The notes under the pieces were generated by a model. That model was not told the origin of the DNA. It saw only the letters and a program-made list of their open reading frames with translations, and did no database searches. A DNA stretch of 64,000 bases, from assembly GCA_014816185.1 (NCBI GenBank), contig GCA_014816185.1_4095.1, one strand, 5' to 3'. Origin of the DNA: a phage. Numbering within the stretch: position 1 is the stretch's first letter; the number at the start of each line of letters is the position of its first letter. This document shows, in pieces, positions 5,575 through 60,893 of the stretch. Both the position numbers and the translations under genes were made by a program.

Positions 5575-6423
5575 ATGGCGAATTTAAAACTACTACAAGA
5601 AGCAATTGCGGCGTTTGCAAATGGCGAACAAGATATTGCTGATAAAAAAATGCGTAAGTATTTCGTTGAGCAAGCTCAAGAAATTAACAAACAACTAGAA
5701 GAAAGCATGGAAGATGAAGACGACGATGAAGATTGTGAAGTCGAAGTTAAAGTCAAAGATGAAGAAAAGCTTGACGAAGATTTTGATGTACAACCAGACG
5801 AAGGTCTAAATGCTGAAATCGAATACACCCTTGGTGAAGAAGATGAAAGTGCAGAAGAAGAAGTTGAATTCTCTGCTGATGCAGATGGTGACGGTGAAGA
5901 CGATGTTGACGTTGAAGTGAAAGCTGATGCTGATGTTCCTTCCGAAGACCAATGGGAATCAATCCAAGATGCTTTCCGTGGCCTACAACAAATGTTTGAT
6001 GAAATCGGTGACGGTGAAGTTGATCTAGATTCTGAAGAAGAAGTAGAAGATAGCGAAGAAGAAGTTGGCGTTGACGGTGACGACGAATTTGCTGATGTTG
6101 AATTCGGTGATGAAAAATTCGGTGAATCCTTCAAACTAGAAAAAGTTGCTCCAGTTGATAAGAAAGAAAAAGCTGGCACTCATTCCAAATCTCCAGTAGC
6201 ACCAGAAGCTAAATCTCCAGTAGCAGGAGCAGAGCCAGTTAAATTCGCTAAGAAAACTGACCAAGCACCACTACTAGACCTAGATGATAAATCTGTTCTA
6301 CCAAAAGATAGTCTAGATCTTGGTAAAAATGCTCGCGGTGAAATGAAAGATGTTAAAGCACCAAAAACTACTGCATCTAATTCTAAATCACCACTAAGCA
6401 AAGCACAACCTAAACTAAAATAA
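5575..6423 (+). CDS. highly acidic prohead core/scaffold-like protein
   Basis: ORF 5563-6423; likely start ATG 5575 after GGAGG; long Asp/Glu-rich tracts; sits between portal and prohead protease; upstream ACTAAATA late-promoter-like motif. Confidence 0.6.
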   Translation: MANLKLLQEAIAAFANGEQDIADKKMRKYFVEQAQEINKQLEESMEDEDDDEDCEVEVKVKDEEKLDEDFDVQPDEGLNAEIEYTLGEEDESAEEEVEFSADADGDGEDDVDVEVKADADVPSEDQWESIQDAFRGLQQMFDEIGDGEVDLDSEEEVEDSEEEVGVDGDDEFADVEFGDEKFGESFKLEKVAPVDKKEKAGTHSKSPVAPEAKSPVAGAEPVKFAKKTDQAPLLDLDDKSVLPKDSLDLGKNARGEMKDVKAPKTTASNSKSPLSKAQPKLK

Positions 6424-6443
6424 ATATCTGAAAGGAGATCATT

Positions 6444-7067
6444 ATGAGTAGTATGATTCGTGAATGGTCTTCATTCAATGATTCTAAAGTTGTTTTGGAA
6501 CATCGTGATAATGGATTTGGTGGGCGTGACTGCTATCTTCGTGGTATTGCTATTCAAGCCGACCAACGAAATTTGAACGAGAGAATTTACCCTTTATCTG
6601 AAATTACAAGGGCAGTAAATAACATGAACCAGCGTTTAGCTAAAGGTGAAAGCATTCTTGTTGAATGTGACCATCCAGAAACACTAACTATTAACCTAGA
6701 CCGAGTAGCAGCAATGATTACTAAGGTTTGGATGGAAGGTGCTAATGGTATGGCAGAAATCAAACTACTTGATACTGCACATGGTCAAAATATCCGTAAA
6801 ATGCTAGAGGCTGGTGTAAAACTTGGTGTAAGTTCTCGCGGTTCCGGTAACGTTGATTATAATGGAATAGTTTCTGATTTTGAAATTATCACTATTGATA
6901 TTGTTGCTCAACCTAGTGCTCCAGAAGCATACCCAACAGCGGTATTTGAATCTCTGATGAGTAAGTACGGATCACCTTGTAATAGTTCTAAAAAAATCAC
7001 TGAATCTAAAAAAGTAAATAATTTAGATTCTGAAATATACGATTTTTTCAAGAAATTAAAAGGTTAA
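6444..7067 (+). CDS. gp21: prohead core scaffold protein and protease (T4 gp21-like)
   Basis: 207 aa; RNERIYP, GVSSRGSG and IVAQPSAPEAYPT match remembered T4 gp21 (KRLYP, GVSSRGLG, GPSAPDAWVT). Confidence 0.9.
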   Translation: MSSMIREWSSFNDSKVVLEHRDNGFGGRDCYLRGIAIQADQRNLNERIYPLSEITRAVNNMNQRLAKGESILVECDHPETLTINLDRVAAMITKVWMEGANGMAEIKLLDTAHGQNIRKMLEAGVKLGVSSRGSGNVDYNGIVSDFEIITIDIVAQPSAPEAYPTAVFESLMSKYGSPCNSSKKITESKKVNNLDSEIYDFFKKLKG

Positions 7068-7078
7068 CATTTTAAAAA

Positions 7079-7086
7079 TATAAATA
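7079..7086 (+). promoter_or_regulatory. T4-type late promoter TATAAATA
   Basis: Exact TATAAATA 48 nt upstream of the gp22-like start; followed by a 9-bp hairpin. Confidence 0.45.
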
Positions 7087-7133
7087 TCTGTATGTTGAAG
7101 TACAGATATTTCAGTACTTAAAGGAGAGAACGA

Positions 7134-8249
7134 ATGTCTAAATTAGAAAAGCTTCTAAAAGAATCATCTCTTTCTGATGAGGCAAAACAGCTAATTCAGG
7201 AAGCATGGAATGAAGAAAAGAATACACTAGCCGCAGAGATGCGTGAAGAAATGAAAGGCCGTTATCAGCAAGATTTGGCTGAACTAACCGAAGGTTTGAA
7301 CACTATGGTTACTCAAGTCATTGCTGAAGAAATGGGTGCTGTATATGAAGAGAAAAAACGTCTCGTTGAAGATCGTGTAACTCTACGTAAAACACTAAGC
7401 AATTTCTCTGCGTTTTCAAACTCTGTTTTGGCTGAAGAAGTTAAACAAATGCGTAAAGAACGTAAGCATCTTCATGAATGCATGGGTAAATTCGTTAATT
7501 TTTCTAACGGTATCCTAGCAGAAGAGCTAAAAGAATTCCACACTGAAAAACGCCAACTAGTAGAAACTCGCGTTAAACTACTTGCTGAAGGTTCACGTCA
7601 AATTGCTGAAGCTCGTAATAACTTCATCAAACGTACATCTGAAAGTGCTGCTAAATATATTGCAGAAACCACTCAGAAGAATCTATATGCGTTGAAACAA
7701 GATCTAGTGGAAGCAAAACAAAATATGTTTGGTCGTAAAATCTTTGAAGCATTTGCTCAAGAGTTTAATGTCAAACAATTTAATGAAAATTCATTGCTAC
7801 GTTCCCTAACTGAATCAATTAAATCTAAAGAAGATGAAATTGCTCAAGTTAAGCAAGAACTACATGAAACTGCTAATGCCGTTAAAGCTGCTAAAACCAA
7901 ACTACGTATTATGGAAGATGCACAAGCACGTAATGCGATTATGTCTGAACTAGTAAAACCACTAACTGCACAGCAAAAACAAATTATGGAATCCCTTCTA
8001 GCTACTTCACCTACTGAAAAGCTTAAAGAAGATTTCAGCAAGTACCATAAGTCAGTACTTAACGGTACTAAAGTAAATGAATCTGCTACCACTCGTCAAG
8101 CAGTTCAGTCTTCCGCTAAGAAAACTCTTGCAGAAGGTAAAGTAATCACTGGCAACCGTCAGGCTATTGTTGAAAGCGAAGAAATGACCGCTGACGATAT
8201 GGCATTCCTAAAAGAACTCGATGTTCTTTCAGGTATCAATAAAAAATAA
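7134..8249 (+). CDS. gp22: prohead scaffold protein (gp22-like, coiled-coil)
   Basis: 371 aa, Glu/Lys/Ala-rich heptad-like sequence between protease and major capsid genes; RBS AAAGGAGAG. Confidence 0.7.
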   Translation: MSKLEKLLKESSLSDEAKQLIQEAWNEEKNTLAAEMREEMKGRYQQDLAELTEGLNTMVTQVIAEEMGAVYEEKKRLVEDRVTLRKTLSNFSAFSNSVLAEEVKQMRKERKHLHECMGKFVNFSNGILAEELKEFHTEKRQLVETRVKLLAEGSRQIAEARNNFIKRTSESAAKYIAETTQKNLYALKQDLVEAKQNMFGRKIFEAFAQEFNVKQFNENSLLRSLTESIKSKEDEIAQVKQELHETANAVKAAKTKLRIMEDAQARNAIMSELVKPLTAQQKQIMESLLATSPTEKLKEDFSKYHKSVLNGTKVNESATTRQAVQSSAKKTLAEGKVITGNRQAIVESEEMTADDMAFLKELDVLSGINKK

Positions 8250-8340: not shown

Positions 8341-9516
8341 ATGTCACAACTACTAAATGAATCCAAATGGGTAGCAGTAAAAGAGAAACTAGTTGAAGGT
8401 CTACAGGGTACTCGTAAGTCTGTAATGGAAACTGTTCTTGATAACCATCGTAAAGTTATGCTAACTGAATCCGCAACTTCTGGTGCAACTACCGCTGGTA
8501 ACATCGCTACTCTAAACAAAGTGATTCTACCAATTATGCGTCGTGTAATGCCAACCGTTATTGCTAACGAAATCATCGGTGTTCAACCAATGACTGGTCC
8601 AGTTGGTCAGATCCACACCCTACGTGTGCAATATGCTGATAACGCACCTGGTGTTATCGCTGGTGAAGAAATGCTTTCTCCATACAAAATCGCTAAATCC
8701 TACTCTGGTGATCTAAATGCGGATAATAGCAACCCACAAGCTGCTCCTACTAGCCAACTAGAAGGTACTATGGGTCGTCGCGTTAACATCCGTATTCTAC
8801 GTGAAACTGTTGAAGCGAAATCTCGTCGTCTATCTGCACGTTGGACTGTTGAATCTGCACAAGATGCTCAATCCCAACATGGTGTTGACGTTGAAGCAGA
8901 ACTAATGGCTGCAATCGCTCAAGAAGTTACCGTAGAAATCGACCAAGAGCTACTAAGCCGTCTACGTGCACTACCTGGTGCTGCTGCTGTAACTTATGAC
9001 CAATCTAAAGTTACTGGTGTTGCAACCTTCGTTGGTGATGAGCACGCTGCTCTAGCAACTCTAATTAACCGTCAAGCAAACGAAGTTGCTCGTCGTACTA
9101 AGCGTGGTGCTGCAAACTGGGCTGTTGTTTCCCCAACTGCACTAACCATTCTACAATCTGCTACTACTTCTAGCTTTGCACGTACCACTGAAGGTACTTT
9201 CGAAGCACCAACTAACGTTAAGTTTGTAGGTACTCTAAACAGCACTATGCGTATTTTTGTTGATACGTATGCTTCAGATGCCGAGGACATTTTGATTGGT
9301 TATAAAGGTAATGCTGAAACTGATGCTGGTGTGTTCTATTGCCCATACATCCCACTAATGGCTTCCGGTACTGTAATGGACCCTAACACTGGGGAACTCG
9401 TTACAACTTTCTTAACCAGATACGGGTATGTTCAGTTGACCGATAGCACCAGTTCACTAGGTAACGCTGCTGACTACTACAGCAAAATCGCTATCAAAAA
9501 CGTTACTTTCATGTAA
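8341..9516 (+). CDS. gp23: major capsid protein (T4 gp23 family)
   Basis: 391 aa; ILPIMRRVMPTVIANEIIGVQPMTGPVGQIHTLRVQY and VEAKSRRLSARWTVESAQDAQSQHGVDVEAEL align with remembered T4 gp23; strong RBS AAGGAGA; strong terminator downstream. Confidence 0.92.
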   Translation: MSQLLNESKWVAVKEKLVEGLQGTRKSVMETVLDNHRKVMLTESATSGATTAGNIATLNKVILPIMRRVMPTVIANEIIGVQPMTGPVGQIHTLRVQYADNAPGVIAGEEMLSPYKIAKSYSGDLNADNSNPQAAPTSQLEGTMGRRVNIRILRETVEAKSRRLSARWTVESAQDAQSQHGVDVEAELMAAIAQEVTVEIDQELLSRLRALPGAAAVTYDQSKVTGVATFVGDEHAALATLINRQANEVARRTKRGAANWAVVSPTALTILQSATTSSFARTTEGTFEAPTNVKFVGTLNSTMRIFVDTYASDAEDILIGYKGNAETDAGVFYCPYIPLMASGTVMDPNTGELVTTFLTRYGYVQLTDSTSSLGNAADYYSKIAIKNVTFM

Positions 9517-9560
9517 TTGTAATCGATTTAAAAGATTTAATCAAGAAATTCAAAACAATA

Positions 9561-9590
9561 GGGACTCTTCGGAGTCCCTTTTCTTTTTTT
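9561..9590 (+). terminator. Rho-independent terminator after capsid gene
   Basis: GGGACTC-ttcg-GAGTCCC hairpin followed by TTTTCTTTTTTT. Confidence 0.8.
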
Positions 9591-9634
9591 ATAATCATCT
9601 AAATACACATAGGTGACATTAAGGAGATCAAATT

Positions 9635-9985
9635 ATGTTAACTGTATACAAATTTAACAAAGAAGAGTACTTAAAGAGTCAGCACTCAAATATAGAAATA
9701 AATGTTCCTTATGGTACGTTAGTTGGATATGATGAAGCCACTGAAACATTGTATTATAATGATGATAGATTGGATTATAGTTTAGATTCTTTCATAGAAG
9801 ATATACTTAATACACATACTGAAGATATGTTGTATGAAGAATACATAGATCATTATAGAGAACGTATGTCGGTGCTGCATTCTGATGCTCCTGTACTAAA
9901 CATAGCACAAGAACCATCGGAATTTCAGCCACATAATCCTTTTCAACGTTTAATTGATATTGGTTTAAAATTCACTATTAGTTGA
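9635..9985 (+). CDS. hypothetical protein (116 aa)
   Basis: ORF with RBS AAGGAGA; no recognisable motif. Confidence 0.5.
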   Translation: MLTVYKFNKEEYLKSQHSNIEINVPYGTLVGYDEATETLYYNDDRLDYSLDSFIEDILNTHTEDMLYEEYIDHYRERMSVLHSDAPVLNIAQEPSEFQPHNPFQRLIDIGLKFTIS

Positions 9986-10024
9986 TAGATAAATATCTCC
10001 ATATTAATGATGGAGATTGAATCT

Positions 10025-10333
10025 ATGTCACAGATATGTTATGTTATAATAAACTCTGCATGGCCTGACTATGTTAAGATTGGTTTCACTTCTAAATCTG
10101 AAATGACAGAGCGATTGAGAACGTATCAGACAGCTACCCCGTTTCGTGATTTTGAAGTTTATCATGAAGTTCACTTTGAAGACGCACGTTTAGCTGAAAA
10201 AGAGATACATAAAAGGCTTAAACAAATGAATGCAACTAGACAACCAAACACAGAGTGGTTTAAAATGTCTAAAAAGATAGCAGCAAACATCATTGATTCT
10301 GTGTGGGATGATATGGATAACGACTTGCTATAG
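10025..10333 (+). CDS. T5orf172 (GIY-YIG-like) domain protein
   Basis: ORF 10007-10333, start ATG 10025 after GGAGA; CYVIINSAWPDYVKIGFTS ... RLRTYQTATPF ... EWFKMS matches the T5orf172/MUG113 domain pattern. Confidence 0.65.
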   Translation: MSQICYVIINSAWPDYVKIGFTSKSEMTERLRTYQTATPFRDFEVYHEVHFEDARLAEKEIHKRLKQMNATRQPNTEWFKMSKKIAANIIDSVWDDMDNDLL

Positions 10334-10373: not shown

Positions 10374-11984
10374 ATGAGCATAAGTTTTAATAACCCATTG
10401 GATACAATGACCAGTACTGGTGCTAATGGATCTTTAGAACTAATAGTGCTTGGTGGTACACCAACTAACCCAAGACCTATTCGTTTTAATTCGTCATCAG
10501 TTATTATACCAGTACAAACGTTACCTACTGGTGAACAAGGTGCAATGGTTTTTGATCGAAACGAATTAGTTTTGAAGTATCATAACGGTACAAGTTGGAT
10601 TGCAGTATATGATACTGATACTATTTTGGAACCAATTAGAATTTCATTAGATGAAGTAAACAGAAAATTAAATTTAAAAGTAGAAAGTGTAACATACAGT
10701 AGCAGTACTGTTCCTAGTGCAAGTATTAGTGGAACAAACTTAAACATTGTATTCCCTACTGCTTCTAGTGGTGGTTCTGGTCCAACTGGTCTTTACACTT
10801 CACTTAAACCTGGTGCTATTACACAATATTCATTGACTTCTGGTCAATCTGTTGCTAGTATACGTGAACAAATGTCAGGGCAATCGAATGGACAAAGTGG
10901 ACGAAACGGTTCACAAGGTGCTCCGTGGAAAACGTCTGACGGTTGGTGTTTTGCTGATGGTATGTGGTGGCAATGGGAGGGGGAAAATGGTACAATTACC
11001 AAACAAGTACCAAACCTTAACCAAAACGCGTATTTAAAAGGTATAACAACATCAGGTGTAACTAAAACTGATAGTGTTATTGGTAGTAGTGGTAACATTA
11101 GTGGAACTGTATTGAGTGTTGCCCAGTTACCATCACACTCATTTAGTTTTAGTGGAACCACTGGTGCTGCTGGTCGTCATGGTCATAGTCAAGCACTAAA
11201 AGGTATGGACCGTAGTGGTCTAAATGCGTTAACTTCAAGTAATGATAACGGTATACCAACTGTAATCAATAACATTAACGAAGCACCAGACCACATTCAC
11301 TCATTTAGTGGAAACACTAACACACTTGGTGGAAACCAACCACACTATCATGGTATTAGCAACATTGATGTGGAACACTTTAACGTTGCATACCTATATA
11401 ACATTGCTGAATCTAACGTCGCATTGAGTGAAAAAGTTGCAAACACTCGTTATGTACTAAAAACTGGTGATACAATGACTGGTTCATTGACTATTGCAAA
11501 CAGTGCGTCAATTAAGTCAAATGATACATCATTAGTTCTATATTTCCGTAACGCAAGCGGTGGTGAGCGTGCGGCAGTGTATCATAACTCTTCAAATAAT
11601 ACATTGAGATTACGTTCCGGTGGAGCAGAAGTTACTGTAAACTCTTCTGGTACTTTAGCTGCTCCATCATTAACTGTTTCTAACAACTCAGCTACTGTTG
11701 GTGGTAAAAATATTGTTCGTTCAATTAACGGTACTGCTGCTGATGCTAGTGGCAACGTTACTTTGCAAATTAGTACTAATAACGTACAAAGTATTCGTTT
11801 GAGTGCACGTATTGAAACAAGTAAAATACCTGATTCTTCATGGACATATACACCAGAAGGTGCATTTATGGATGGCGTATGGATTTCTGTTAATGGTAGT
11901 TCAGGCACTCACTTAGAACGAATTAGTTATCGCTATGTTCAAATGCAAATAAATGGTAACTGGGAAACAGTACGTCAACAATAA
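10374..11984 (+). CDS. tail fibre-like protein with HxH motifs
   Basis: 536 aa, Ser/Thr/Gly/Asn-rich; HxH motifs (GRHGHSQ, DHIHSF, PHYHGI) reminiscent of metal-binding HxH repeats in T4 gp12/gp37; followed by a Tfa-like chaperone. Confidence 0.55.
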   Translation: MSISFNNPLDTMTSTGANGSLELIVLGGTPTNPRPIRFNSSSVIIPVQTLPTGEQGAMVFDRNELVLKYHNGTSWIAVYDTDTILEPIRISLDEVNRKLNLKVESVTYSSSTVPSASISGTNLNIVFPTASSGGSGPTGLYTSLKPGAITQYSLTSGQSVASIREQMSGQSNGQSGRNGSQGAPWKTSDGWCFADGMWWQWEGENGTITKQVPNLNQNAYLKGITTSGVTKTDSVIGSSGNISGTVLSVAQLPSHSFSFSGTTGAAGRHGHSQALKGMDRSGLNALTSSNDNGIPTVINNINEAPDHIHSFSGNTNTLGGNQPHYHGISNIDVEHFNVAYLYNIAESNVALSEKVANTRYVLKTGDTMTGSLTIANSASIKSNDTSLVLYFRNASGGERAAVYHNSSNNTLRLRSGGAEVTVNSSGTLAAPSLTVSNNSATVGGKNIVRSINGTAADASGNVTLQISTNNVQSIRLSARIETSKIPDSSWTYTPEGAFMDGVWISVNGSSGTHLERISYRYVQMQINGNWETVRQQ

Positions 11985-11994
11985 GGAATGTGTA

Positions 11995-12510
11995 ATGCAA
12001 CTAACAAATTTTAAGATGTATGAAAAAGAAGGTGGTAATCCTAATTCTTTGTATATGATGTCCGATGAAGGTATGGATTGGTATGAATCTCGTGAATTGT
12101 TTGACATTAATAAAGCAAAATTTATGTATGATATTAACGGTTTAATTGTTTCAGCATCATATAACATTTATGATCTAGTACCTTTAGGTTTTAGTGTTTC
12201 TGAAATTGAATATGATGGTGATATTAACAAACTTTATGGTATGGTTTACGATGGAAATACTATTCATGACTATATTGAAACTAAAGAAGAAAAAATTGAA
12301 CGCCTAAAAAATGAATTATCTAATTTGAAATACATTGCAATTCAAGAACTTGGACACTTAAAAACTGCTATGGATCTTGAGTTAGCAACTGATGAAGAAG
12401 CTGTATTGTTTGTAAAATTGAAAGATTATGTAACGCAATTGAATTCAATCAAACCAGCAGACATGATCAAGAAAACATTTTCATTTCCAGTTAAACCGGA
12501 AAAAAAATGA
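11995..12510 (+). CDS. tail fibre assembly chaperone (Tfa-like)
   Basis: ORF 11953-12510; start ATG 11995 after AAGGA; C-terminal ATDEEAVLFVKLKDYVTQLNSIKPADMIKKTFSFPVKPE resembles the conserved Tfa C-terminus. Confidence 0.6.
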   Translation: MQLTNFKMYEKEGGNPNSLYMMSDEGMDWYESRELFDINKAKFMYDINGLIVSASYNIYDLVPLGFSVSEIEYDGDINKLYGMVYDGNTIHDYIETKEEKIERLKNELSNLKYIAIQELGHLKTAMDLELATDEEAVLFVKLKDYVTQLNSIKPADMIKKTFSFPVKPEKK

Positions 12511-12536: not shown

Positions 12537-12544
12537 TAAGTCAT

Positions 12545-12575
12545 CTCACCGATTGTGGTGAGGTGACATTTTTTT
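12545..12575 (+). terminator. hairpin plus T7 tract
   Basis: CTCACC-gattgt-GGTGAG then TTTTTTT (12569-12575); downstream of the Tfa gene. Confidence 0.6.
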
Positions 12576-12600
12576 GAAAACACACATGGAGAAATACAAA

Positions 12601-12903
12601 ATGGCTAAATCTAAAAAAGAAGTTAAAGTTGAAATTCGTGATCTAAACGATGAACAACGTAAACGTCTCGGTGACGCACTTAACAACATTGTTGTACAAC
12701 TAACTTTCATTGATGATACCAAAGCATCCTTATCTGATTTTGTTTCTAGTGTTTCTGATGAACTTGGTATCGATGCATCTGATATCAAACAAGCTGCACA
12801 ACGTATGTACAAAGGTGATTACTTTGACAAACAAAATAAACTCGATAATATCGAAACTATTCTTAGTGTTACTAATAATCTTCCACAAGCAGATGATTAC
12901 TAA
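12601..12903 (+). CDS. hypothetical protein (about 100 aa)
   Basis: ORF 12574-12903; likely start ATG 12601 after GGAGAAA. Confidence 0.5.
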   Translation: MAKSKKEVKVEIRDLNDEQRKRLGDALNNIVVQLTFIDDTKASLSDFVSSVSDELGIDASDIKQAAQRMYKGDYFDKQNKLDNIETILSVTNNLPQADDY

Positions 12904-12982: not shown

Positions 12983-15900
12983 ATGTATATCGATGCTTAT
13001 ATGGAACGTAAACGTACTGGTGATATTCTTCATGTAGTTGAACGTAAGAATGGTAAACGTATTCTACGCGAATTAGATCCAGTATATGAATATTATGTTG
13101 AATCCCCACAAGGAACACATAAAACTGTTTATGGTACAATGGCTAAACATTTTGAGTTTCAAACTCAAGCTCAAATGAATAAAAGTGTAGAGCAACACAA
13201 AAGTGAAGGTCTACGTATTTTTGAAAGTGATTGTAACATTACATTTAAAACATTAGCTAAAGAATATATGGGAAAAGGTTCACCCGATTTGAACATCGTG
13301 TTCTTCGATATCGAGACTGATTTCCATAAGAAATTTGGTTATGCTCCACCATCAGATCCGTTTAACCGAGTAACCGCTATTTCTCTATATCAATCATGGA
13401 CTGGAAAGGATTATGTACTTACTTTACCACCTGCTGATATGGAAATTTATGAAGCACAAGATATTGTTCGCCAACTAAATGAAGAAACAAACGATCCTAA
13501 CAGTACTGTAATTTTATATACAGACGAAAAGGAAATGTTTATGGAATTCTTTAGTTTAATTGATGATTCTGATGTTATTTCAGGATGGAATAGTGAATTC
13601 TTTGATATTCCATATATGATCAATCGAACTAAAAAAATCTTCAATGAAGCAACAACTGCTCGTTGGTGTTTATGGAATAAAAAACCAAATTCACGTGAAG
13701 CAGACAACTTTGGTAAAACTGTTCAAACATATGATCTGGTAGGTCGCGTCCATCTTGATTATTTGGCTTTGTATAAGAAACATGCTGGTCAAGTTGAACA
13801 ATCTTATAAACTAGATTATATTGCTGAAAAAGTAACTAAAGAAAATAAAGTATCCTATGAAGGTTCATTGGATAAACTTTACAGAGAGGATTACATTACT
13901 TTCTTGCGTTATTCTAAACAGGATAGTATTCTTCTTAAAAAGATTGATGCTAAATGTGACTATATCAACCTACACAATCGACTTGCACACAAAGAATGTG
14001 TACTTATCAGTACAACAATGGGTTCAGTAGCACTAATCGACACTGCTATTATCAACTTAGCACATACTCGTGGTGAAGTTGTTTTCAACAAAGCACCGAA
14101 AGATGATCTTGAGTTTGATCCAGAAATGGAATATTATGGTGAAGATGGTGAAGAAGAAGATGAGAAAATTAGTGCAAAAGCAGCAGGTGCATGGGTACAA
14201 GATCCAGTACTAGGACTTGTAAGTGACCTTGGGTGTACTGACTTTAACTCTCTTTACCCTACTGTTCTACGTACTTTAGGTATGAGTACTGAATGTATTC
14301 TTGGTCAATTACGTCAAGATTACACCGATGCGTATCTTGCAGCTAAAATCCAAGAACAGAAGAACAAATCTAAATCTAAATCATTTGAACCAGATTGGAC
14401 TGCGGCATGGCATGGTTTATTTGCTGCTGTTGAATTTACAATGGTTCATGAAAAGTCAGAAGAAACATTGATTGTTGATTTAGAAGATGGGAGTTCTTTT
14501 AAAGCAACGGGCAAAGAGCTATATGATATTATTTTTGCAGAAGATAGTACTATTGTACTTAGTGCAAACGGAACACTTTTTGATAAGTCTAAGTCTGGTG
14601 TAATTCCTGACATTCTAACTCAATGGTATTCTGAACGTAAAGCACAGCAAAAAATGGTCATTGACTATAAACATATGTATACTGATGGTTGGGAGTTTAA
14701 TGGCTATGAAAAAGTCGAACCACTACTACCAAACTATACCCCTGGTACAATGTTTAGAACTAATATTCATGATAATGATCCTGTATACTTACTTCGTAAA
14801 GAAATTGGTAAAGGACAGTGGGATGAAGTTGCTAAGTTGATTGTAGAAAATGGATTAGTTCTAAAAGATGGTCGTATTTTCTGTCCTAAAGAAGAAAAAG
14901 ATTACTTCAAACAACGTAGTGCTTTCTGGAAACAGAACCAACAGATTCGTAAGATTCTTCTAAACAGTCTATATGGTGCACTATTGAACAAAGGTTCTCG
15001 TTTTTTTGACAAACGTTTAGGTCAATCCGTAACATTAACTGGACGTTCTATGACCAAACATATGGCAAGTCGTATCAATGAAATTACTACTGGTGTATAT
15101 AACCACCAAGGTGGTTCAGTAATTTATGGTGATACTGACTCAGTTTACTTTAGTGTAACTCATTATCTGAAAGAACAAGGTATTCCATATAATCTATCTA
15201 AAGAAGAGATTGTTGATATGTATATTAAAATTGGTGAAGAAGTTGGTGAATCTTTCCCATCATTTATGCATGAGATGTTCAACACTGGTATTGAAAAAGG
15301 TAAGATTGTTGGTGCAGACCTTGAGATGGTTGGTTCACGTGGCCTATTCTTGAAGAAAAAACGTTATGCAATTCTGAAGTACTGGGAAGATGGGTTCCGT
15401 AAAGATATTGATGGTAAACCTGGTGAAATCAAAGCGATGGGTCTTGAAATTAAACGTTCAGATACCCCAAAATACATCCAGAACTTCCTAGAAGAGACTC
15501 TAATTGCATTACTGGTAGGTGAGAGTGAACAACAGCTAAAACAGCGTGTACGTGAGTTTAAGGACGTATTTAAGGATATGCCAGTACATGAAAAAGGTTC
15601 ACCGAAAACTGTTAAAAACTACACCAACTTAGAGGCTGAATATCAGCTAACAGGTAAGTGTAAGGTTGGTCACGTTCTTGCAGGGATTCAATGGAACCGC
15701 CTACGTGAAGTTTATGATGATAAAACTGTACCAGAAGTAACTGATGGGACAAAAGTAATTGTCTGTAACTTAAAAGATAATCCTATGGGAATTAAAGCAG
15801 TTGGATATCCAATTGACTGTGTTGAGTATCTACCAGAATGGTTCTTAGAATTACCTTTTGATACTGAAAAAATGGAAGAGATTGTTCTAACTAAAAAATT

Positions 15901-15988
15901 AGAGAATATTTTTGGTATTTTGGATATGGATATTGGTATTCATGAAAAAAGTACTGCGTCAGTAAACAATGGATTCTTCACTTGGTAA
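12983..15988 (+). CDS. gp43: DNA polymerase, family B (T4 gp43-like)
   Basis: 1001 aa; exonuclease motif FFDIETDF, polymerase motif YGDTDSVYF, KKRYA motif. Confidence 0.93.
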   Translation: MYIDAYMERKRTGDILHVVERKNGKRILRELDPVYEYYVESPQGTHKTVYGTMAKHFEFQTQAQMNKSVEQHKSEGLRIFESDCNITFKTLAKEYMGKGSPDLNIVFFDIETDFHKKFGYAPPSDPFNRVTAISLYQSWTGKDYVLTLPPADMEIYEAQDIVRQLNEETNDPNSTVILYTDEKEMFMEFFSLIDDSDVISGWNSEFFDIPYMINRTKKIFNEATTARWCLWNKKPNSREADNFGKTVQTYDLVGRVHLDYLALYKKHAGQVEQSYKLDYIAEKVTKENKVSYEGSLDKLYREDYITFLRYSKQDSILLKKIDAKCDYINLHNRLAHKECVLISTTMGSVALIDTAIINLAHTRGEVVFNKAPKDDLEFDPEMEYYGEDGEEEDEKISAKAAGAWVQDPVLGLVSDLGCTDFNSLYPTVLRTLGMSTECILGQLRQDYTDAYLAAKIQEQKNKSKSKSFEPDWTAAWHGLFAAVEFTMVHEKSEETLIVDLEDGSSFKATGKELYDIIFAEDSTIVLSANGTLFDKSKSGVIPDILTQWYSERKAQQKMVIDYKHMYTDGWEFNGYEKVEPLLPNYTPGTMFRTNIHDNDPVYLLRKEIGKGQWDEVAKLIVENGLVLKDGRIFCPKEEKDYFKQRSAFWKQNQQIRKILLNSLYGALLNKGSRFFDKRLGQSVTLTGRSMTKHMASRINEITTGVYNHQGGSVIYGDTDSVYFSVTHYLKEQGIPYNLSKEEIVDMYIKIGEEVGESFPSFMHEMFNTGIEKGKIVGADLEMVGSRGLFLKKKRYAILKYWEDGFRKDIDGKPGEIKAMGLEIKRSDTPKYIQNFLEETLIALLVGESEQQLKQRVREFKDVFKDMPVHEKGSPKTVKNYTNLEAEYQLTGKCKVGHVLAGIQWNRLREVYDDKTVPEVTDGTKVIVCNLKDNPMGIKAVGYPIDCVEYLPEWFLELPFDTEKMEEIVLTKKLENIFGILDMDIGIHEKSTASVNNGFFTW

Positions 15989-58894: not shown

Positions 58895-58928
58895 GTTTTA
58901 TGACAAAGAGACATGATAAGGAATTCAA

Positions 58929-60893
58929 ATGGCTAAGAAAGAAAGTGCTGTTCTACAGGAACATGATGTTCAACGACTAAATGATTATCAACATGCTCGT
59001 TTGCGTACCGAGATGTATCTTGGTTCTCGTTCAGTGCATGAAAGTCAAGTACTGATTTTTGGTGAATCAGGTTATGAGGTTAAGAACGTAGAATGGGTTC
59101 CTGCAATTCTTACTGCTACACGTGAAATTATTGATAACAGCTTAGATGAATTTAAAAAAGCTGGAACCAAAGAACCTGTTTTGAAAGTTGATTTCAATGA
59201 AGAAGAACTATCATTTGAAATTAGTGACAATGGACGTGGTATTCCAATTGATTATGTTCCAGAGTATCAGAAAAACTTGTGTACTATGGTAATGACTGAA
59301 ACAAAAACAGGCCGTAACTTTGACGATTCAAAACGTGATGAAACGATTGGTCAGAATGGTTTAGGTGGTTCTGTTGCAATGATTGTCAGTTCTAAGGCAG
59401 AGTTAGAAATTCATCGCCAAGGTCGTCCGTATAAAACACAAAGTAGTAATGATGGTTATGATGGGTTTTATAAGTTCAATCAGAAGTTTGAGGAAGGAAC
59501 TATTATGTTCCCTGAGCTTCATGTACACGAACCTACTATTAGAAAGGTACAAACCGATAAAACTGGAACAACAATTCGTTTTACTTTGAGTAAAGAAGTT
59601 TTTCCAAACAGAAAACTACCAACCGAATTACTTTATAGTATTCTTAAAGAAATGGCAGCAGCTAACCCAACTTATAAAATCTTTCTGAACGGGAAACGTA
59701 TTGCTATTAAAGGAAACACTGAAAAAGCACTCTTCAATGCATCTAAATTAATGCAGTTGAATGTTAAAGATGATTCATTCAATTTTAACAGTACTTTTTA
59801 TATTGTTCCTAATGCAGTAGCTGGCATGAACACGAATTTCCATATGCATGGGTTGGTTAACAATGCTCCTGCATTTGATGGTGGTACACATCTTGATACA
59901 TTCAAGAAATTCTTCTCACTCGGTGTAGGAACTGCACTAGAGAAAGAATCTAAGAAACGTAGGATGAAACCTAATCGTTCTGATATTGAAGAAGGTTTGT
60001 TGATTTATAATGTCACAACTATGAAAGCACCTTCATTCAACTCACAGATTAAATCTAAACTAACTAATGAAAACGTAATCCGTCCAATTCAACAAGCTAT
60101 GAATACCGAATGGTTTGATGAATTAGTTAAGAAGAACAAAGAATGGGTTGATGAAATCTTCGAACGTTGTGCTGCCCGTACAAATAAGAAAGATGCAGAA
60201 GAAGATCGTCGCCTAGCAAAGAAACTTCTAAAAGGTAAAGTTGCAAAACTATTGGATAGTACTGGAACAGACCGTTCACAGTGTATTCTATTGATTGCAG
60301 AAGGTGACTCTGCAATTTCCAACATGGCTAGTGCTCGTATACCAAGTATTCATGGTATTCTACCATTGCGTGGGAAAATTATGAACGTCAGTGGTACTGA
60401 GAAAACCAAAGAATTAATGGATTCAATGGCTTTACATGATATAATGGCTAGTATCAACTTAGTTCCAGGTGTTAAAGCAGAACGTTCTGAACTAAACTAT
60501 GGCAAGCTTTACATCTGTGCTGATGAAGATGAAGATGGGAAGAACATTGGTGCTCTAGTGTGTAACTTCTTATTTAAATTCTGGCCTGAATTGTTTCAAG
60601 ACCCAGAAAATCCATTTGTGTATGTATTCAAAACACCATTTATCATTCTTGAGAAAGGTAAAGAATCAAAATACTACTATGGTCATAATGTGCATGAATA
60701 TAACCCAGATGATTGGAAAGGCTGGAAAGCAACGCGTGCAAAAGGTTTAGGAACTTTAGAAAAAGCAAACTTCCGTGATGCATTCACTAATAGTGTTGCA
60801 GTAGCGATCACCGATGATGGCCGTCTTGGTGAAACTCTTGATTTGATTTTCAACAAGAAACGTGCAGATGATCGTAAGAACTGGATGGAATAA
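58929..60893 (+). CDS. gp39: DNA topoisomerase II large subunit (GyrB-like; T4 gp39 and gp60 equivalents fused)
   Basis: 654 aa; ATPase-region IDNSLDE and TOPRIM LLIAEGDSA; size matches uninterrupted gp39+gp60. Confidence 0.88.
   Translation: MAKKESAVLQEHDVQRLNDYQHARLRTEMYLGSRSVHESQVLIFGESGYEVKNVEWVPAILTATREIIDNSLDEFKKAGTKEPVLKVDFNEEELSFEISDNGRGIPIDYVPEYQKNLCTMVMTETKTGRNFDDSKRDETIGQNGLGGSVAMIVSSKAELEIHRQGRPYKTQSSNDGYDGFYKFNQKFEEGTIMFPELHVHEPTIRKVQTDKTGTTIRFTLSKEVFPNRKLPTELLYSILKEMAAANPTYKIFLNGKRIAIKGNTEKALFNASKLMQLNVKDDSFNFNSTFYIVPNAVAGMNTNFHMHGLVNNAPAFDGGTHLDTFKKFFSLGVGTALEKESKKRRMKPNRSDIEEGLLIYNVTTMKAPSFNSQIKSKLTNENVIRPIQQAMNTEWFDELVKKNKEWVDEIFERCAARTNKKDAEEDRRLAKKLLKGKVAKLLDSTGTDRSQCILLIAEGDSAISNMASARIPSIHGILPLRGKIMNVSGTEKTKELMDSMALHDIMASINLVPGVKAERSELNYGKLYICADEDEDGKNIGALVCNFLFKFWPELFQDPENPFVYVFKTPFIILEKGKESKYYYGHNVHEYNPDDWKGWKATRAKGLGTLEKANFRDAFTNSVAVAITDDGRLGETLDLIFNKKRADDRKNWME

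Follow-up and report, generated by a model that had tools for sequence, protein, structure and literature searches.

Phages ICP1 and 121Q encode endonucleases built around the Pfam T5orf172 domain, namely gp53, gp121, gp130, gp174 and Odn (gp88) in ICP1 and gp604 in 121Q. These enzymes are 226 to 412 amino acids (aa) long, couple the nuclease domain to CapR, DUF723 or DUF4379 zinc-finger domains or to RepA_N DNA-binding domains, are variably present between isolates and favour capsid-adjacent sites. I-TevI and SegB of phage T4 belong to the same superfamily, and the T4 GIY-YIG endonucleases are likewise mobile and equipped with DNA-binding domains. Phage T4 also possesses endonuclease II (DenA), a small, non-homing GIY-YIG-type nuclease that nicks host DNA in trans as an early function. 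To our knowledge, the T5orf172 family is widespread and biochemically poorly known, and no stand-alone member has been characterised. Here we analysed a stretch of 64,000 nucleotides (nt) of phage DNA, hereafter the window (contig GCA_014816185.1_4095.1 of the NCBI GenBank assembly GCA_014816185.1), in which a gene located at 10025..10333 on the + strand encodes a stand-alone T5orf172 domain of 102 aa. The protein shares the motif residues Y, K-x-G, R, E and E-[WTF]-F with the ICP1 and 121Q enzymes and its gene also lies near a capsid gene. Unlike these enzymes and the mobile ones of T4, it is reduced to the nuclease domain, and its gene is fixed and vertically inherited. From what is generally known of DenA, the two are alike as small non-homing nucleases that would act in trans, DenA being early whereas the window gene looks late. 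Our favoured reading, to which we assign a probability of about 0.55, is that of a domesticated minimal nuclease, translated late in infection and likely cutting or nicking DNA in trans.

The window belongs to a jumbo coliphage of the genus Asteriusvirus. The region 9000-12600 matches Escherichia phage PBECO4 over its full length with 99.0% identity, and phages UB, JP4, phAPEC6 and 121Q with 97-99%. Public records of this phage and of its relatives already carry an annotation of the gene and its domain: it reads 'GIY-YIG nuclease family protein' in PBECO4 and 121Q, and 'T5orf172 domain protein' in other records. The enclosing open reading frame (ORF) spans positions 10007-10333 (+) and the ATG at 10025 is internal to it. 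Since this ATG is preceded by GGAG at 10012-10015 and matches the start 'MSQICYV...' common to nearly all homologues, the length of 102 aa and the limits of the coding sequence, stop codon included, are correct. The Pfam T5orf172 profile (PF10544) matched residues 4-91 with an E-value of 3.1e-13 and 50.5 bits, well above the cut-off of 20, covering positions 2-98 of the 101 of the profile, and the orthologues obtained equal scores. The MUG113 profile (PF13455) matched with E=8e-13 and the protein was assigned to phrog_15085, a PHROGs family of unknown function, with E=2e-58; NCBIfam returned no match for it. The 102-aa protein is essentially a T5orf172 domain and nothing more, at a significance far beyond chance, as the first-pass annotation had proposed for this gene. 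No domain besides the T5orf172 nuclease, and no DNA-binding domain, was found in the Pfam, NCBIfam and PHROG scans of the protein, and searching the PDB sequences with the family profile gave nothing relevant. The PADLOC matches to PDC-S57 and PD-Lambda-1 were set aside, having the domain in common and nothing more. The GC content of the gene (0.359, against 0.344 ± 0.038 for windows of equal size) is native.

To what extent the domain has kept the features of an enzyme was assessed on a family alignment of 31 members with identities down to 63%. A search of 5.8 billion proteins gave 32 clusters, all of 100-108 aa, 63-93% identical and mostly from contigs of about 350 kb. Invariant positions in the alignment are Y6, K18, G20, T22, R30, Y34, T36, P39-F40-R41-D42, H47, E58, E60, E77-W78, N88 and D91. 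They include the Pfam T5orf172 signature (Y...K-I/V-G-x-T...R...E...E-W-F) as well as the catalytic arginine of helix 1 and the catalytic glutamate of GIY-YIG enzymes, found as R30 and E58. The R30-x3-Y34 spacing presumably corresponds to the Arg-x3-His/Tyr pattern of the classic GIY-YIG enzymes. The second tyrosine of the GIY-YIG signature is not present: the first Tyr is Y6, and the second position is occupied by Lys (K18-I-G), which is typical of T5orf172 proteins generally. In a wider subfamily alignment K18, G20, R30, E58, E77 and W78 remain invariant, Y6 is kept in at least 90% of the sequences, and the R30/E58 core persists in relatives down to 27% identity. Similarly, Y6, K18, G20, R30, E58 and E77 are invariant upon alignment with ICP1 Odn (gp88) and gp121, 121Q gp604 and RaK2 ORF095. 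In Odn, the E58 column is occupied by E180, within the segment 'YDTEQRIHEEL'; the E180A substitution abolishes cleavage in vitro and in vivo, and its authors equate E180 with I-TevI E75 (PMC8263062). The catalytic core thus looks intact from the sequence, and the relation to GIY-YIG nucleases put forward by the first-pass annotation is right with respect to domain match, fold and catalytic residues alike.

The fold is that of the GIY-YIG superfamily, with a three-stranded sheet and helices in the order beta-beta-alpha-beta-alpha. It resembles SLX1 and URI-type nucleases, at 14-15% sequence identity; in contrast to SLX1, the window protein contains neither a RING nor a zinc-finger domain, and an Slx4-like partner was not identified. 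Structural matches were also obtained with the UPF0213 proteins EF2693 and BH0048, single-domain GIY-YIG proteins of similar size (about 100 aa), which form a cellular family with the classic GIY/YIG signature that the window protein does not have. We know of no UPF0213 or stand-alone T5orf172 protein characterised well enough for a role to be transferred. The core of the window protein is basic (pI 8.8) and the full protein acidic (pI 5.9), owing to a C-terminal tail conserved in the 31-member alignment as DD-x-[DE]-N-[DG]-L-[LI]; this tail could therefore cover the face that binds DNA, or serve to attach the enzyme to a partner.

With such a tail and no DNA-binding domain, one may wonder whether the domain cleaves anything. 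It might have been domesticated as a non-catalytic module, binding DNA or protein as a regulator or as a factor of tail-fibre assembly or chaperoning. An overall acidic protein with a conserved acidic tail is suited to protein contacts, the gene always adjoins the tail-fibre gene, with which it forms in the window a single terminator-bounded unit, and repressor activity is known among T5orf172 relatives, for example in the satellite protein CapR. However, CapR binds DNA through a zinc-finger domain which the 102-aa protein does not have, and the protein was not detected in three virion proteomes. Moreover, pseudo-enzymes usually lose their catalytic residues, while here R30, E58, Y6, Y34 and N88 are invariant among the 31 members and R30 and E58 persist at 27% identity. 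We consider this alternative rather improbable. The DNA-binding regulator suggested by the first-pass annotation found no positive support either, with no DNA-binding domain and invariant catalytic residues.

The distribution of the gene was established by tblastn with a threshold of E<=1e-20. It was detected in 63 phage records of the clade, in a single copy each and with a coverage of at least 95%, and the counts per genus equal those of the capsid gene: 34 in Escherichia, 8 in Salmonella, 8 in Erwinia, 4 in Yersinia, 2 in Cronobacter, 2 in Pectobacterium and 2 in Serratia. Among these 63 records we observed no presence/absence polymorphism, truncation or frameshift, all versions being 96-108 aa long. 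Gene order is conserved as well: capsid, a variable insert, a gene of 116-140 aa, T5orf172, tail fibre, tail-fibre assembly protein, a gene of about 100 aa and DNA polymerase succeed one another in 121Q, vB_Ec-M-J, A4, G17, PHA46, fENko-Kae01, Hallingskeid, GAP32, CBB and BF, and in XaC1 with extra ORFs. This synteny spans at least five genera, for instance Asteriusvirus, Mimasvirus and Eneladusvirus, and includes phages of Erwinia, Klebsiella and Xanthomonas. The closest relatives beyond the clade set (55% and 47% identical) are encoded at this very position too, on metagenomic contigs with capsid proteins 66% and 81% identical to that of the window. The location between capsid and tail-fibre genes assigned by the first-pass annotation thus holds for both flanks, with the qualification that an ORF of 116 aa at 9635-9985 intervenes after the capsid gene.

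The gene is also under strong purifying selection. The dN/dS ratio (non-synonymous over synonymous substitution rates) amounts to 0.024 for the pair with 121Q and to 0.037 for that with vB_Ec-M-J; among distant pairs the proportion of non-synonymous differences (pN) is 0.15-0.20 and synonymous sites are saturated (pS 0.75-0.94). Between genera, the T5orf172 protein retains 68-78% identity, to be compared with 28-35% for the 116-aa neighbour, 31-69% for the protein of about 100 aa, 60-72% for the scaffold, which it equals or exceeds, and 86-92% for the capsid protein, below which it remains. Its distances follow those of the capsid protein over 14 loci (Spearman 0.93; Mantel r=0.84, reached by 0 of 5000 permutations), in a test confounded by tight linkage, the gene lying 500 bp from the capsid gene, so that this co-divergence speaks against hopping and yet is not independent evidence. 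The gene is inherited vertically, strongly selected and not a decaying remnant.

The remnant mobile element envisaged by the first-pass annotation is accordingly not supported, considering its presence in 63 of 63 records, the synteny, dN/dS ratios of 0.02-0.04 and the co-divergence with the capsid. In its explicit form, this explanation would have a homing endonuclease gene lose its DNA-binding domain and be neutrally retained. The nuclease domain does stand alone, while 87% of the phage T5orf172 homing endonucleases analysed for DNA-binding domains have zinc-finger ones (PMC10448857), and decay does happen at the locus, as phage GAP32 carries a remnant of the neighbouring homing endonuclease gene, GAP32_251. 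Nonetheless, a neutrally drifting sequence fits poorly with a protein still 68-78% identical where synonymous sites are saturated, with a constant length of 96-108 aa, with invariant catalytic residues and with a start codon, Shine-Dalgarno (SD) sequence and regulated leader that are all conserved; we regard it as very improbable. Descent from T5orf172 homing endonucleases is probable, with homing behaviour no longer present, and the gene is a conserved, vertically inherited one of the 121Q/PBECO4-GAP32-CBB-BF clade of jumbo phages. In the family at large, 1.84 billion representative proteins searched with a profile yielded 2024 T5orf172 hits at E<=1e-3. Many of these are 90-120 aa long; many others have N-terminal extensions of 40-120 aa, as do the 131- and 172-aa relatives found in T5-like phages.

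The true mobile element of the locus is a neighbour that the window does not contain. In most relatives, an extra gene of about 1.1-1.2 kb is inserted between the capsid terminator and the 116-aa gene. In 121Q it encodes gp604, a free-standing homing endonuclease of 365 aa with DUF4379/CapR/DUF723 zinc-finger motifs and a C-terminal T5orf172-like domain whose catalytic residues are kept. Genes of this type are carried by 121Q, UB, JP4, A4, G17 and others and are absent from the window and PBECO4; they encode 307 aa in G17, 304 aa in fENko-Kae01 and a remnant of 77 aa in GAP32 (the GAP32_251 mentioned above), and the slot is occupied by other endonuclease-like genes in RaK2, PA5oct and the contig L026. 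Relative to 121Q, 1190 bp are missing from the window, with breakpoints at 9591 and 9635, leaving the empty site at 9591..9635 (+). The two sequences are otherwise about 99.7% identical, except that mismatches per 200 nt rise to 14, 6, 12, 21 and 17 across 9200-10200, from a background of 0-2. This divergence tract is centred on the empty site and ends inside the T5orf172 ORF, as though the neighbouring endonuclease had left a co-conversion tract there. Such a reading fits the report of T5orf172 homing genes lying beside capsid genes and marking the boundaries of recombination (PMC10448857). In the same phage pairs, the synonymous divergence of the T5orf172 and 116-aa genes is several times that of the flanking capsid and ~100-aa genes (for the window and 121Q, dS is 0.33 and 0.58, respectively, against 0.07), and the GC content at third codon positions (GC3) over 10025-10333 is higher, 0.32 against about 0.21; these raised values are partly due to the neighbouring tract.

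One may still ask whether the T5orf172 gene is itself selfish, either as a minimal or two-component homing endonuclease borrowing its DNA recognition from the 116-aa neighbour or from a gp604-type protein, or as an element whose fixation has saturated the clade. Its nearest relatives outside the clade are T5orf172 proteins from the tRNA regions of T5-like phages, rich in homing endonuclease genes, some of them annotated as homing endonucleases; T5orf172 homing genes cluster beside capsid genes (PMC10448857); its late-promoter and hairpin control, described below, is that of T4 homing endonucleases; and its distribution among deeper relatives is patchy. However, the 63 clade records display no presence/absence polymorphism and no truncations or frameshifts, dN/dS is very low and the gene co-diverges with the capsid, the divergence tract has its centre at the neighbouring homing endonuclease site and its end within the gene, and gp604 retains catalytic residues of its own. 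Consistently, the hallmarks of homing endonucleases were not observed for the T5orf172 gene: its nuclease is not joined to a sequence-specific DNA-binding domain, it is neither sporadic nor frequently decayed, as opposed to the gp604-type neighbour which does vary, and no co-conversion tract is centred on it. Distribution also led us to reject an endonuclease formed by two genes, this one and its 116-aa neighbour, as they occur independently of each other. RaK2 has the 116-aa gene and no T5orf172 gene at the slot, contig L020 has the T5orf172 gene and no 116-aa gene, and in Salmonella phage PHA46 the 116-aa orthologue is broken by deletions of 42 and 67 nt next to an intact T5orf172 gene. From the latter two cases, the 116-aa protein is not an obligate partner. 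On balance, we find it unlikely that the gene is still selfish.

The leader of the gene resembles the regulated leaders of T4 late genes. An ATAAATA motif, similar to T4-type late promoters, lies at 9989..9995 (+), 29 nt upstream of the ATG; its position is kept in 17 of 19 loci across genera, amid intergenic sequence that diverges. ATAAATA is the predicted late promoter of the related phage CBB, with 35 sites before structural genes (PMC5259590). A second copy is found upstream of the tail-fibre gene, and the full TATAAATA upstream of the scaffold and capsid genes of the window, throughout which it is not enriched; the other promoter motif of CBB, 'TGAAACG...TATA', has no occurrence in the window. 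Abutting the ATAAATA motif, a hairpin at 9995..10017 (+) associates the arms 9995-10002 (AUCUCCAU) and 10010-10017 (AUGGAGAU) around a 7-nt loop, and was also detected as a stem-loop in a scan of the window. Its 3' arm contains the SD sequence GGAG (10012..10015, +), located 9 nt before the ATG and paired with a probability of 1.00 in the predicted folds. A construct of 46 nt (9985-10030), in which an outer helix of 6 bp joins the hairpin of 8 bp, folds at -13.7 kcal/mol (z=-3.4), and the hairpin alone within the 39-nt leader 9989-10027 at -9.0 kcal/mol. In addition, an extended form of the motif, ATAAATATCT, is found repeatedly; it is complementary to GGAGAT, a common SD context.

The pairing is kept with different sequences in the relatives. 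The stem is AUCUCCAU/AUGGAGAU in the window and 121Q, ACUUCC/GGAGGU in Kae01, PHA46 and Hallingskeid, ACCCC/GGGGU in GAP32, CBB, BF and Yen9-04, and AUACUCC/GGGAGUAU in contig L026. MAFFT having failed to hold the arms in register, conservation was judged from folds and shuffles of each sequence: the SD is paired with a probability of 1.00 in 12 of 14 distinct orthologous leaders, and for 10 of the 14 this value was reached by no more than 7 of 300 sequences in which the intervening segment had been shuffled. A covariance model trained on five leaders proved too sequence-specific and did not separate the orthologous leaders from those of other late genes.

The same layout is described for T4 I-TevI, I-TevII, I-TevIII, segB, e, soc and 49 and for Aeh1 mobE: long early and middle T4 transcripts conceal the ribosome binding site, and late transcripts, which begin inside the hairpin, get translated (PMC2988022, PMC3014915). 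The window leader, read here from its sequence, displays this arrangement, with a late-promoter motif abutting a hairpin in which the SD is paired. In T4, transcription starts about 6 nt after the late-promoter motif. Applied to the window, this rule would place the late RNA start near 10001, so that of the 8 nt in the 5' arm only 2 would remain. If the leader works as in T4, read-through transcripts coming from upstream would not be translated, while late transcripts, devoid of the hairpin 5' arm, would be. The T5orf172 protein is thus probably made only late in infection.

A late-type promoter motif and a place beside capsid and tail-fibre genes could also suit a virion protein. The first-pass annotation had named conservation at this locus across all relatives, combined with a structural role, among what would overturn its interpretation; the conservation largely holds, and the protein was not detected in three virion proteomes. 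Phage phAPEC6 encodes an identical T5orf172 protein; in the portion covered of its table of virion proteins, 62 in number by mass spectrometry, gp215c is directly followed by gp225c, and a search of the paper gave none of gp221-gp224. The virion list of CBB includes CBB_257 and CBB_260 and not CBB_259, the T5orf172 protein. Finally, in fENko-Kae01 the flanking capsid, fibre and 100-aa genes are flagged as detected by liquid chromatography-tandem mass spectrometry (LC-MS/MS), and ENKO_289 is not. The T5orf172 protein is not a detected virion component in these three proteomes, and its fold is an enzyme fold. A structural or head- or tail-associated protein, which the position of the gene and its late-type promoter motifs might evoke, therefore has hardly any credit in our view.

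Returning to the domesticated nuclease that we favour, its most likely action is to cut or nick DNA in trans while late DNA metabolism is under way. It might process branched replication or recombination intermediates, or degrade competing DNA. Specificity would need oligomerisation or a partner, to which the enzyme might be docked via the acidic tail (DDxxNDLL). Iyer et al. (2021) noted that URI/T5orf172 proteins are conserved in jumbo phages of group 2.2 and proposed that they act like resolvases (PMC7824862); the orthology of the accessions they cite (QAY00453.1 and APU01437.1) to the T5orf172 gene could not be confirmed, and the genome papers of fEgEco12 and CBB do not discuss the gene. 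Taken together, the late timing, the SLX1-like fold and this proposal point to the processing of branched or recombining DNA.

Several observations weigh against the favoured reading, besides the linkage that confounds the co-divergence test. The clade already possesses a homologue of T4 endonuclease VII (CBB_248), so that a resolvase role would be redundant and at best auxiliary. Late-only translation rests on the analogy with T4. Weaker promoter-proximal pairing that touches the SD also precedes the genes at 1217 and 6444 (1178-1217 and 6420-6444), and in the scaffold leader (7080-7113) a strong hairpin of 12 bp immediately follows the motif and leaves the SD uncovered; the device is thus a general feature of late genes, clearest at T5orf172. 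Finally, RaK2, PA5oct and Vibrio phage 2.275.O have no T5orf172 gene at the same slot, which indicates that it is dispensable for that type of virion and replication. No analogous nuclease was recognised there: RaK2 keeps the 116-aa gene (ORF096, 47% identity) and has an unrelated ORF of 244 aa (ORF097) in the slot, and neither this ORF nor those of PA5oct (154, 232 and 101 aa) and Vibrio phage 2.275.O show any detectable relation to T5orf172. These slot ORFs matched no Pfam family and are mutually unrelated; in a PHROGs scan of those of RaK2 and PA5oct, only the 101-aa ORF of PA5oct gave matches, to families of unknown function.

A more specific form of catalysis in trans can be imagined, in which the catalytic module of a homing endonuclease, pared down to the nuclease domain alone and fixed throughout the clade as a gene translated late, has become the catalytic subunit of a split modular nuclease, recruited through its DDxxNDLL tail by a separate DNA-binding protein or by a protein of replication or packaging. 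Such an enzyme might serve debranching or recombination, possibly exchange at the adjacent mosaic tail-fibre locus. We hold this variant to be unlikely.

The gene lies inside the structural region. Upstream are the prohead protease (6444-7067), the scaffold (7134-8249) and the major capsid protein of the Gp23 family (8341-9516, E=1e-89), and downstream the tail fibre (10374-11984, phrog_13229), the tail-fibre assembly protein (11953-12510), the protein of about 100 aa (12574-12903; phrog_639, transcriptional regulator) and a family-B DNA polymerase (12983-15988). The transcription unit containing the T5orf172 gene is limited upstream by a bidirectional intrinsic terminator after the capsid gene (9560..9579), conserved in relatives and annotated in G17, and downstream by an intrinsic terminator after the tail-fibre assembly gene (12540..12567, +), the equivalent of which is also annotated in G17. 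The 116-aa protein (9635..9985, +) belongs to phrog_15724, of unknown function; it has no detectable domain, is kept out to RaK2 (47%) and diverges fast (28-35% identity with GAP32 and BF). The protein of about 100 aa is encoded just upstream of the DNA polymerase in all relatives, is the one detected by LC-MS/MS in fENko-Kae01, and its orthologue in contig L026 gives a weak match to Phage_DsbA.

Two other patches of divergence were noticed around the locus. Within the tail-fibre gene (11000-11200 and 11677-11984), mismatches to PBECO4, 121Q and G17 form a cluster of 11-14 per 200 nt, and the DNA similarity to more distant Asteriusvirus genomes is lost from about 11680, which denotes a mosaic fibre C-terminus. 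At the 3' end of the capsid gene (9397-9460), the window and PBECO4 differ by a dense block of synonymous changes, with 19 mismatches in 9400-9600 and identical capsid proteins. The two haplotypes of this block are each found in phages with or without the neighbouring endonuclease gene, and it may be a recoded endonuclease target site or an old recombination patch. Elsewhere in the 64-kb window, no second T5orf172 domain was found using profile hidden Markov models built from two family alignments. The marginal match at 58920-60890 is a GyrB/Toprim topoisomerase: this ORF of 657 aa unites GHKL ATPase, GyrB, Toprim and TOPRIM_C domains in one polypeptide, and is the fused topoisomerase subunit described for group 2.2 jumbo phages.

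Relative to the existing annotations, what is added here is useful but not surprising: the gene is a selected, vertically inherited one rather than a remnant, its leader contains a conserved T4-style late switch, and the mobile element of the locus is the absent neighbour. In practice, whoever compares or engineers these jumbo coliphages, which are therapeutic candidates, should regard the small gene neither as junk nor as a homing element. A conserved 12-kDa member with a single domain and intact catalytic residues is also a convenient model for the bare T5orf172 domain. The conserved leader, combining late promoter and hairpin, extends a regulatory device of T4 to RaK2-like jumbo phages. Finally, should the protein prove to be a catalytic subunit that is recruited, it would illustrate how nuclease modules that were once selfish become domesticated.

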